Below are positions 4,128-5,845 of a DNA stretch of 9,779 nt, one piece after another. Where the stretch lies: positions 1 through 9,779 of the IMG/VR virus record IMGVR_UViG_2703718811_000003. One strand, given 5' to 3'. This DNA comes from a virus (Duplodnaviria > Heunggongvirae > Uroviricota > Caudoviricetes). The notes under the pieces were generated by a model. That model saw nothing but the letters and a program-made list of their open reading frames with translations. It did no database searches and was not told where the DNA came from. Position 1 is the first letter of the stretch; each line of letters begins with the position of its first letter. The translations under genes and the position numbers were made by a program.

Positions 4128-4234
4128 GGTGTTATTCCCGATGCTTTTTGAAGTTCGCAGAATCGTATGTGTAGAAAATTAAACAAACCCTAAACAATGA
4201 GTTGAAATTTCATATTGTTAATATTTATTAATGT
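4128..4234 (-). promoter_or_regulatory. AT-rich region upstream of bor, probable bor promoter and RBS region
   Basis: Strongly AT-rich 107 bp directly 5' of the bor start on the minus strand, with GGGAA before the ATG. I could not pin a confident -35/-10 pair by eye. Confidence 0.3.
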
Positions 4235-4480
4235 ATGTCAGGTGCGATGAATCGTCATTGTATTCCCGGATTAACTATGTCCACAGCCCTGACGGGGAAC
4301 TTCTCTGCGGGAGTGTGCGGGGATAATCAAAAACGATGCACACCGGGTTTTCTCATTTTTCACGAGATGGGAGCGATTTCCCGCGAAGCCGCCTGTCCGG
4401 TGCGGTGGTGGAAGAAACCGGATAAAACAACCGCATTGTGCAAATATCGATCAAATATGGTGCTGCTGTGTGAAATCTGA
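4235..4480 (+). CDS. hypothetical protein (81 aa), possibly spurious
   Basis: ORF only; Cys-rich translation with no recognisable motif and no clear RBS. Confidence 0.2.
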   Translation: MSGAMNRHCIPGLTMSTALTGNFSAGVCGDNQKRCTPGFLIFHEMGAISREAACPVRWWKKPDKTTALCKYRSNMVLLCEI

Positions 4481-4535
4481 AAAATCACAGCGGTCATTAT
4501 GCATCAGTTTTTAACACAGGACGTCAGAACGTGAC

Positions 4536-4928
4536 ATGGCAAAGCTGGACTGGAAAAAGCTGGAGCAGGCATTCCGACGCGAACATGCCGAAACGGGAAT
4601 AACATTACTGGACTGGTGCCGGAAGAAAAAGATTAATTACAACACCGCCAGAACCCGTATAAAAATGGGCAAAATCGATCATGAAATTGATCATAAAACC
4701 GATCATGAAATCGATCATGACATCTCAGATGAAGAACCCAGCAATGACGCGTGTTCCGACGATGAAAAATGCGCAAAAAACTCTGAAAAAAACTGCGCAA
4801 ATTCGGCAGAAACGAAACGGATTCGTGGTTCCCGACTTTTACCTCCTTCAAACGCTTTTTCTCAGCGAAACACCCACGCCGTAAGACACCGTGGATACCG
4901 GAAGCCGCACATTGTTCCCACGTCTTGA
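4536..4928 (+). CDS. HTH-containing protein with acidic His/Asp repeat; possible remnant of a terminase small subunit-like packaging protein (uncertain)
   Basis: N-terminal ~45 aa (MAKLDWKKLEQAFRREHAETGITLLDWCRKKKINYNTARTRIK) resembles the HTH of phage small terminase / DNA-packaging proteins. It is followed by the (I/T)DH(E/K/D) x4 repeat. The C-terminal third is low-complexity and overlaps the next ORF, so the 3' end may not be genuine. Weak RBS. Confidence 0.45.
   Translation: MAKLDWKKLEQAFRREHAETGITLLDWCRKKKINYNTARTRIKMGKIDHEIDHKTDHEIDHDISDEEPSNDACSDDEKCAKNSEKNCANSAETKRIRGSRLLPPSNAFSQRNTHAVRHRGYRKPHIVPTS
4674..4721 (+). repeat. four tandem 12-bp units (atcgatcatgaa-like), each containing a GATC Dam site
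   Basis: Units at 4674-4685, 4686-4697, 4698-4709 and 4710-4721. GATC at 4677, 4689, 4701 and 4713. In frame the repeat encodes IDHE-IDHK-TDHE-IDHD. Confidence 0.9.
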
Positions 4929-5298
4929 GCCGGTGCATGTTGACAGTGCGATGGCCTGGCAACTGCTGGGGTTTCCGGATGTCTGGGTTCGTCATGAAGA
5001 GCTTGATGATGTTCTGAAAAAGCAACAACAGAATGAGCAGTTGCGGCAGGCACAGCAGGCGCAGGAAAGAGTGCTTGCTGCGCGGGCAGAAGCGGAGAAC
5101 AGTTTTGTTGTTTCTGTTAACGGGCAGGAGGTGGATTTAAGTAAGCTCACCTCAGCACGGCTGGCGACGCTGTGTGAGGCAGAAGAGCTGGATATTCACA
5201 AAGACCCGAAAGAAACGGCTGAGGCATTCCGTATCCGGGTGCGTGAGGCATTTTGCCGTCGTGTTGCGGAGACTGAACAGCATGGCGGAACTGAGTGA
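4891..5298 (+). CDS. hypothetical protein (start uncertain: GTG 4891, TTG 4912 or ATG 4951)
   Basis: ORF with Gln-rich helical middle and charged C-terminus; stop TGA 5296-5298 overlaps the start of the next gene. The same frame is open upstream back to about 4681, interrupted only by TAA at 4882-4884, so it may be a remnant of a longer gene. Confidence 0.45.
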   Translation: MDTGSRTLFPRLEPVHVDSAMAWQLLGFPDVWVRHEELDDVLKKQQQNEQLRQAQQAQERVLAARAEAENSFVVSVNGQEVDLSKLTSARLATLCEAEELDIHKDPKETAEAFRIRVREAFCRRVAETEQHGGTE

Positions 5299-5845
5299 TT
5301 TTTTACCGTATGTCCGTCGTCATATCAGCGGTCCACTGAACATTATGATGACGGATGCTCTGTCAATGGCTGCCGTGGCATTCAGCCGCCAGTCGTTGGT
5401 GTGCCGTCGGGAGGTTACTGTTGTACCAGTAGCAGGAAAAGAAATCGTGCTTCCGTATGACAAAGATGATGAGGAGTGCGTTCATATCATCCGTATCTCT
5501 GACGATAATCATGAGCTTTTTGTCGGTCGGGATGTGGATATCAGCTCCGGACGCTCCCTGCGATTTGCCTGTTCTCCCGGTGAGGTGAGCGTGCTTTATG
5601 CCGTCGCTCCGAAAGCCGGACGCAGCCAGATACCGGATGAACTCCTCACATGGCCTGAAGAAGTGGCTGCGGGGGCACTTGAGCGGTTGTTCATGCAGAC
5701 TGGTGTTTCATGGTCAGATCCGTTACGCGCACAGTATTTTTCTGTGCAGTTTTCTGAGGGGATCCGTCGGGCATATCGTCATACACTGGCGACAAGCCCG
5801 TACTCTTCATACCGCAACCCTGTACGCAGGCAGAGGTTTTTCTGA
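5282..5845 (+). CDS. hypothetical protein (187 aa), putative fiber-associated or virion protein; distant paralog of the next gene
   Basis: ATG 5282 with GGAG about 10 nt upstream; overlaps the upstream ORF by 17 nt and its stop TGA overlaps the next ATG (ATGA at 5843-5847). The listed start at 5174 would overlap the upstream gene heavily. Confidence 0.6.
   Translation: MAELSDFLPYVRRHISGPLNIMMTDALSMAAVAFSRQSLVCRREVTVVPVAGKEIVLPYDKDDEECVHIIRISDDNHELFVGRDVDISSGRSLRFACSPGEVSVLYAVAPKAGRSQIPDELLTWPEEVAAGALERLFMQTGVSWSDPLRAQYFSVQFSEGIRRAYRHTLATSPYSSYRNPVRRQRFF

Follow-up and report, generated by a model that had tools for sequence, protein, structure and literature searches.

What has become of the packaging genes in a Shiga-toxin (Stx) prophage whose bor gene is followed, where terminase genes would be expected, by little more than two fragmentary open reading frames (ORFs)? 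The question is raised by a stretch of 9,779 bases (hereafter the window), which is one complete contig, LOIL01000133.1, of the Escherichia coli draft assembly GCA_001607685.1, and which, from its ORFs and alignments, is the late region of a short-tailed prophage of the 933W/Sp5 type (Sepvirinae). Our analysis indicates that the segment between bor and the tail-fibre operon (positions 4128-5300) is very probably the scar of one illegitimate-recombination deletion in such a prophage. The break joined codon 121 of the small-terminase gene terS to codon 21 of ORF64 at a TA microhomology, removing 7,234 bp. A first-pass annotation of the same DNA had suspected that either a deletion or a nonsense mutation at this place took away the head and packaging functions and left the prophage defective. 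The deletion is borne out as a single clean break relative to VT2phi_272, Sakai Sp5 and the Stx1c prophage of strain ST866, and the loss of function is supported by gene content and by published knock-outs in Sp5; the nonsense mutation, as discussed below, is not.

The evidence for the deletion comes from comparison with intact relatives. When positions 4128-5300 were compared by megablast with 50,697 phage records and 5,426 complete E. coli genomes, hundreds of matches at 99.5% identity were found, all ending at query position 770 (window 4897), and no record in either set spans the segment. Likewise, a 42-mer spanning the junction had no match in GTDB species representatives or JGI metagenomes. 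Alignment to intact related prophages, which the first-pass annotation had proposed as a check, places the breakpoint at 4896/4897: window 2618-4897 aligns to positions 12491-14770 of VT2phi_272 (locus L001) at 99.7% identity, window 4896-8193 aligns to positions 22003-25300 of the same phage, and alignment to Sakai Sp5 yields an offset of 7,234 bp as well. Identity of the right flank is 99.85% to the ST866 prophage and ranges from 95.9 to 99.85% across the intact references, while the DNA left of 4897 is essentially unchanged native terS, showing 4 mismatches to an intact phage over 770 nucleotides (nt). Read base by base, terS-derived and ORF64-derived DNA meet without a gap and share only the dinucleotide TA. 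The interval that is missing between them contains, in intact phages, the last 147 codons of terS (122-268), terL, the portal gene, ECs1222 (the head gene ORF61), the major capsid gene ECs1223 (which matches PF13252 and phrog_334), ECs1224 (ORF63) and the first 20 codons of ECs1225 (ORF64). Since 7,234 is not a multiple of three, the terS-ORF64 fusion is out of frame. Moreover, because the flanks are 99.7-100% identical to intact phages, the deletion is probably recent on an evolutionary scale.

Neither of the two ORFs that meet at the junction is an intact, conserved full-length gene. The truncated terminase product, TerS', matches profile positions 1-135 of the 284 of phrog_370, where intact TerS matches all 284, and the ORF that follows matches positions 21-153 of the 153 of phrog_482. 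In TerS', 121 residues match native TerS (268 amino acids (aa)), the codon for Tyr121 spans the junction, and nine out-of-frame residues, RKPHIVPTS (122-130), precede a stop at 4926-4928; the C-terminal oligomerisation and TerL-binding part that a full-length TerS match includes is absent. NCBI assigns the fusion protein to Escherichia coli and names the identical protein EIG6609353.1 'terminase small subunit domain protein'. A single-sequence AlphaFold model of TerS' has three confident helices within residues 6-41 and is disordered in the remainder; matches to this model in Foldseek were nearly all to helix-turn-helix (HTH) domains, none of them significant, and searches of PDB sequences with TerS and ORF64 returned chance-level matches only. 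The product of the fusion keeps only the HTH domain and a disordered linker. The first-pass annotation had read this ORF as an HTH gene whose 3' third is of low complexity. The HTH-type ORF and the low complexity are both present, but the stretch lies in the middle of the ORF, where the 12-nt tandem repeat AAATCGATCATG, in 4.4 copies at 4672-4724, is followed by an acidic stretch. Intact TerS has the same low-complexity part except for three substitutions relative to VT2phi_272, and on this comparison the segment is the native terS linker and not a product of decay.

On the other side of the junction, alignment with full-length proteins shows that ORF64' has lost its start codon, its ribosome-binding site and its first 20 codons, so that it has no start of its own. 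The GTG at 4891 lies within terS-derived DNA and is not a native start, in agreement with the earlier remark that the ORF at 4891-5298 lacks a convincing one.

What would these losses mean for the element? Mondal et al. (2016) deleted the late genes of Sp5 one by one (PMC5155283). They found that head formation and packaging need the portal (ORF60), ORF61, the capsid (ORF62) and ORF65, that the tail needs ORF67, ORF70, ORF71, ORF79 and ORF80, and they name the terminase genes ORF58 and ORF59 in the Sp5 morphogenesis set (PMC5155283). Deletion 1 removes the homologues of ORF59-62 and cripples that of ORF58, and therefore the element should be unable to make heads or to package DNA. Judging from gene content together with the Sp5 knock-outs, it would neither cut and package its DNA nor build a head, and a second deletion, at junction 2 (14.2 kb), has removed tail genes too.

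At junction 2 the tail-fibre gene (ORF67 homologue, annotated 'tail fiber protein' in ST866) is joined out of frame to the ORF80 homologue. The fibre lacks its C-terminal 41 residues, the break at codon 704 here corresponding to codon 719 of 760 in ST866, and the homologues of ORF70, ORF71 and ORF79 lie in the stretch that was lost. Junction 2 is known from this contig alone, and the contig is reported for 2 samples. The joint creates GGTACC, a KpnI site, which raised the idea of an engineered deletion; since neither fusion is in frame and no KpnI site marks junction 1, we set that idea aside. In GCA_020319715.1 (contig ABCZAI010000075.1, 1286-11318) there is a sister element with an identical junction 1 and an identical 130-aa TerS', 99.85% identical to the window over 3611-6975. 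It lacks junction 2, however, and its downstream structure differs: relative to ST866 it has four deletions of its own, the largest, of ~4.7 kb, lying at a 21-bp repeat and the others measuring 3.2 kb, 315 bp and 1,285 bp, and it keeps segments that are absent from the window while lacking a segment that the window keeps. Thus the terS-ORF64 deletion came first and was followed by independent erosion in two lineages. As a separate observation, the collagen-like Gly-X-Y region of the tail fibre (7988-8173) falls short of its ST866 counterpart by 45 bp (15 codons), a variation in repeat number.

The part of terS that survives carries an array of short repeated motifs. The repeated tgcgcaaa that the first-pass annotation had seen at about 4769-4800 is there: the window contains TGCGCAAA twice and no more, at 4770-4777 and 4794-4801, both inside one repeat of 12-nt period. 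Two copies in 9.8 kb are not unusual by count, since 27 of 200 shuffles reach two. The tandem repeat just upstream, with its four Dam-site hexamers, has an identical layout in intact phages (L001, L010). In IMG/VR homologues of terS at ~75% and ~40% protein identity (loci L047, L049, L058 and L065-L089) the GATC cluster is absent and TGCGCA is found 5-7 times within nt 100-330; a P1-like Dam cluster conserved across the terS family was accordingly rejected. Within one gene TGCGCA stands in two to three codon phases (TTG-CGC-AAA, AGT-GCG-CAA and TGC-GCA). Synonymous recoding predicts 0.3-0.7 copies per terS, with 0 of 2000 recodings reaching the observed count, and the other ~3.6 kb of each homologue locus contain 0-2 copies. 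Given this excess over recoding and the use of several codon phases, the array is maintained at the level of the DNA.

A comparable arrangement is found in phage P1, where the small-subunit gene, pacA, itself contains the pac site, directly behind the part that encodes an N-terminal HTH-like domain. In P1 the site consists of Dam-methylatable TGATC(A/G) hexamers, four plus three around the cut, and both arrays are clusters of palindromic hexamers of the form TG..CA. The terS of the window has four [C/T]GATCA at 12-nt spacing and two TGCGCA, with no second GATC cluster in the gene, and the second flanking cluster, the IHF site and the cut site of P1 have no known counterparts here. At the protein level P1 PacA (phrog_1711) and Stx-phage TerS (phrog_370) give weak reciprocal profile matches over their first ~100 residues (E 1e-6 and 2e-4) and a pairwise BLASTP E of 0.009, a similarity that is weak and N-terminal only. 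An N-x-N-T-A-R motif in the putative recognition helix is common to P1 PacA (L009 40529-40900) and TerS (L001 14409-14700). A specific relationship between P1 PacB and Stx-phage TerL was also considered and dropped, no pairwise similarity having been found.

The virion DNA of 933W has been interpreted as terminally redundant, and 933W carries out generalized transduction (PMC3752737); both point to packaging by a pac or headful route, for which a cos site is not expected. The first-pass annotation had placed cos in this segment by analogy with lambdoid phages, an expectation that does not carry over to a phage of the 933W type (PMC3752737). A repeat search of 4128-4535, the only scan made there, found no cos-like element, and in the literature on mapped pac or cos sites of 933W-type phages we found only the report on terminal redundancy and transduction and an implausible PhageTerm 'Mu-like' call. 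We therefore offer the hexamer array in the terS linker as a candidate pac recognition site, a lead and not a result. The fuller proposal, that the array is the P1-like recognition site of the Sepvirinae terminase (four [C/T]GATCA plus two TGCGCA in the 933W type, 5-7 TGCGCA in relatives) and that a helper Stx phage could package and spread this prophage, is possible, and in our judgement rather doubtful. Since no part of the array extends to the right of the junction, the candidate site would survive in the defective prophage, and helper packaging and spread are conceivable because it keeps both the whole array and the HTH domain of TerS.

Could the junction have arisen in some way other than by deletion? 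If positions 4681-5298 had once been a single gene, a mutation to TAA at 4882-4884 would have broken it, and the frame of the 4891-5298 ORF is indeed open from 4663 (first ATG at 4681) save for that TAA, just as the first-pass annotation had described from about 4681. However, the TAA straddles the terS codons GTA-AGA, and it belongs, with all the DNA upstream of 4897, to native terS as found in intact phages. As the alignments place it, the open frame at 4681-4884 runs through terS in another reading frame and has no relation to ORF64; ORF64, from its codon 21 on, makes up the downstream part and in intact phages lies 7.2 kb away. We consider the nonsense scar virtually untenable. An exchange, in which a non-homologous module situated elsewhere in the element took over from the head and packaging genes, would be in keeping with the mosaic nature of lambdoid phages and with the way in which the window switches its best relative along its length. 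Yet two native sequences abut at the junction with no foreign DNA between them, both genes are cut out of frame, unlike recombination at module boundaries, and the downstream tail genes are truncated as well, which makes an exchange extremely improbable. The other concern is a chimeric join, made by the assembler, of two parts of an intact prophage. It arises because the window is an entire contig of a short-read draft and because lambdoid prophages are repeat-rich and often misassembled, and we regard it as very improbable: a 2-bp overlap cannot yield a de Bruijn or overlap join, and two further assemblies encode a 130-aa fusion protein identical to this one, namely the sister element's GCA_020319715.1, from a clearly different strain with another downstream structure, and the independent Logan assembly of SRR8097454, which is 100% identical to the window over 3.1 kb. 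With the same junction in two other assemblies, junction 1 is, by this comparison, real in the DNA of the organism and not a misassembly, and the allele is rare, being present in two or three assemblies.

A further suggestion adds to the deletion and does not replace it, namely that the remnant is mobilisable with a helper: a co-resident or superinfecting Stx-type phage could package the element in trans, or TerS' could interfere with packaging of the helper. All the hexamers (4676-4717, 4770 and 4794) and the HTH domain lie left of the junction, constraint on the array acts at the DNA level throughout the terS family, 933W packages by a headful, pac-like route (PMC3752737), and defective Sakai prophages do get packaged with the help of other prophages (PMC2669165). 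Against this, no mapped pac site for these phages was found in the literature, the function of the array is argued from the example of P1, the fusions out of frame, like the deletions after the first, resemble unselected decay, the element is rare, and the integrase, the replication genes and the rest of the element are outside the contig. On balance we think mobilisation unlikely. Several points also weigh against the deletion as a full account of the element. Our view is of a 9.8-kb contig and not of the rest of the prophage, the 7.2-kb segment may have moved elsewhere rather than been lost, another prophage in the same genome may supply terminase and head proteins, and defectiveness itself is deduced from the genes present and from knock-outs in the literature. 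The two flanks have different closest intact relatives, and since the element is thus mosaic, its ancestor is reconstructed rather than observed.

The deletion in the terS-ORF64 region is ordinary prophage decay and of a known kind, that of the deletion-type defective prophage. It resembles the defective lambdoid prophages of E. coli O157 Sakai, which have lost packaging or head functions and kept other late genes (PMC2669165); some of the Sakai prophages that lack packaging or head genes through deletions or insertion sequence (IS) insertions are still packaged, other prophages providing the help (Asadulghani et al. 2009, PMC2669165). In the window, a late region of the Sepvirinae type has lost DNA cleanly at a microhomology, whereas in the Sakai case an IS disrupts a lambda-type nu1. 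Nor does the window look like a phage satellite or phage-inducible chromosomal island: it keeps structural genes (ORF65 and the adaptor) together with out-of-frame stumps of terS, ORF64, the tail fibre and ORF80, a pattern that fits decay and not a streamlined satellite.

In itself the deletion is of little importance, given that decay of prophages by deletion is commonplace in E. coli and that the allele is rare. It does mark a prophage that should still be able to lyse its cell, with S, R and Rz/Rz1 intact, and unable to build particles. The left end of the window matches an Stx1c phage, and if stx still lies upstream, the strain would release toxin on induction without spread of the phage. 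Moreover, a shared junction 1 followed by different later deletions in two lineages amounts to a small natural time series of prophage erosion. The hexamer array is the more useful by-product, and is the only part that might repay further work. Should it prove to be the pac site of Stx phages, the starting point of headful packaging would be explained, and this would bear on which neighbouring host genes this medically important group of phages transduces.

The remainder of the window (Table 1) follows the order of the intact Sepvirinae Sp5 (O157:H7 Sakai), 933W, VT2phi_272 and the ST866 Stx1c prophage. Common to both are nanS-p, S, R, ant, Rz/Rz1, bor, the small ORF and terS, and then ORF64, ORF65, the adaptor, the collagen-like tail fibre and the giant ORF80, with flank DNA that is 94-100% identical between the window and those phages. 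The window differs by lacking the 7,234 bp from the 3' part of terS through codon 20 of ORF64 and ~14.2 kb from the 3' end of the tail-fibre gene through codon 1121 of ORF80, and by having two out-of-frame fusion ORFs that the intact phages do not have. The lysis cassette (S, R and Rz/Rz1), ant, bor, the 81-aa ORF, ORF65 and ORF66 are present at full length, ORF65 being a scaffold-like head gene in Sp5 (PMC5155283).

Table 1. Features of the 9,779-base window, in order of position.
Feature	Position	Strand	Description
nanS-p, 3' part	1-871		open; first 900 nt of window 100% identical to Stx1c prophage of strain ST866
Holin S	1584-1799		
Lysozyme R	1804-2337		
Antirepressor (ant)	2612-3181		
Rz/Rz1	3338-3802 and 3558-3743		
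bor	3834-4127	-	intact, 97 aa; PF06291 Lambda_Bor; same position in VT2phi_272 and Sakai Sp5; left landmark of the region
Conserved small ORF, ECs1218 homologue	4235-4480	+	intact; 81 aa from ATG 4235 or 67 aa from ATG 4277
terS' (truncated small-terminase gene)	4536-4928	+	130 aa; phrog_370 'terminase small subunit', residues 1-123
TerS N-terminal three-helix (HTH-like) domain, kept	4536-4658	+	AlphaFold helices 6-20, 24-31, 35-41, pLDDT 80-91
12-nt tandem repeat with Dam-site hexamers [C/T]GATCA	4672-4724	+	hexamers at 4676, 4688, 4700, 4712; codes (I/T)DH(E/K)
Two TGCGCA(AA) hexamers	4765-4801	+	at 4770 and 4794; candidate pac recognition element
Deletion junction 1	4896-4897		2-bp TA microhomology, no inserted bases; 7,234 bp missing vs VT2phi_272 and Sakai Sp5
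ORF64' (ECs1225 homologue, phrog_482)	4897-5298	+	codons 21-153 kept; phrog_482 positions 21-153 of 153
ORF65 homologue (ECs1226)	5282-5845	+	intact, 187 aa; phrog_437 full-length; length equals ECs_1226
ORF66 homologue, SU10-type adaptor protein	5845-6495	+	intact, 216 aa; PF24175 E 3.3e-32; phrog_399
Collagen-repeat tail-fibre gene (ORF67 homologue), truncated	6492-8654	+	704 native codons, then 16 out-of-frame residues
Deletion junction 2	8602-8603		2-bp TA microhomology; 14,196 bp missing vs ST866 prophage
Giant tail-assembly gene fragment (ORF80/ECs1242, LPD5/LPD38 domain protein)	8603-9779	+	from codon 1122 of 2,794; no start, runs off contig

The small ORF between bor and terS had been called doubtful in the first-pass annotation. 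It is not: in a profile search it matches phrog_6954 at 81 of 81 positions (E 3.7e-60), so that it is a conserved, full-length member of that family, and it is annotated at the same place in intact phages; the RefSeq version has 67 aa and begins at the second of the two ATGs. PHROGs and some phage records label it 'Rz-like spanin', probably through carry-over of an annotation, since the real Rz/Rz1 pair sits upstream. No Pfam or NCBIfam match was found for the small ORF, TerS, TerS' or ORF64, the sole signal from those libraries, a ROXA-like winged-helix match, being sub-threshold and disregarded.

Some minor observations concern the left part of the window and its surroundings. The left flank is mosaic: positions 1-1807 are nearest to ST866 (99.7%), and 2618-4897 are nearest to VT2phi_272 and many Stx2a phages (99.7%), ST866 being only 90-97% identical to the window in the latter interval. 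IS629 lies near this region in VT2phi_272 and in Sakai, and there is none in the window. Finally, nanS-p lies just downstream of stxAB, and the contig begins ~1.6 kb downstream of the expected end of stxB.

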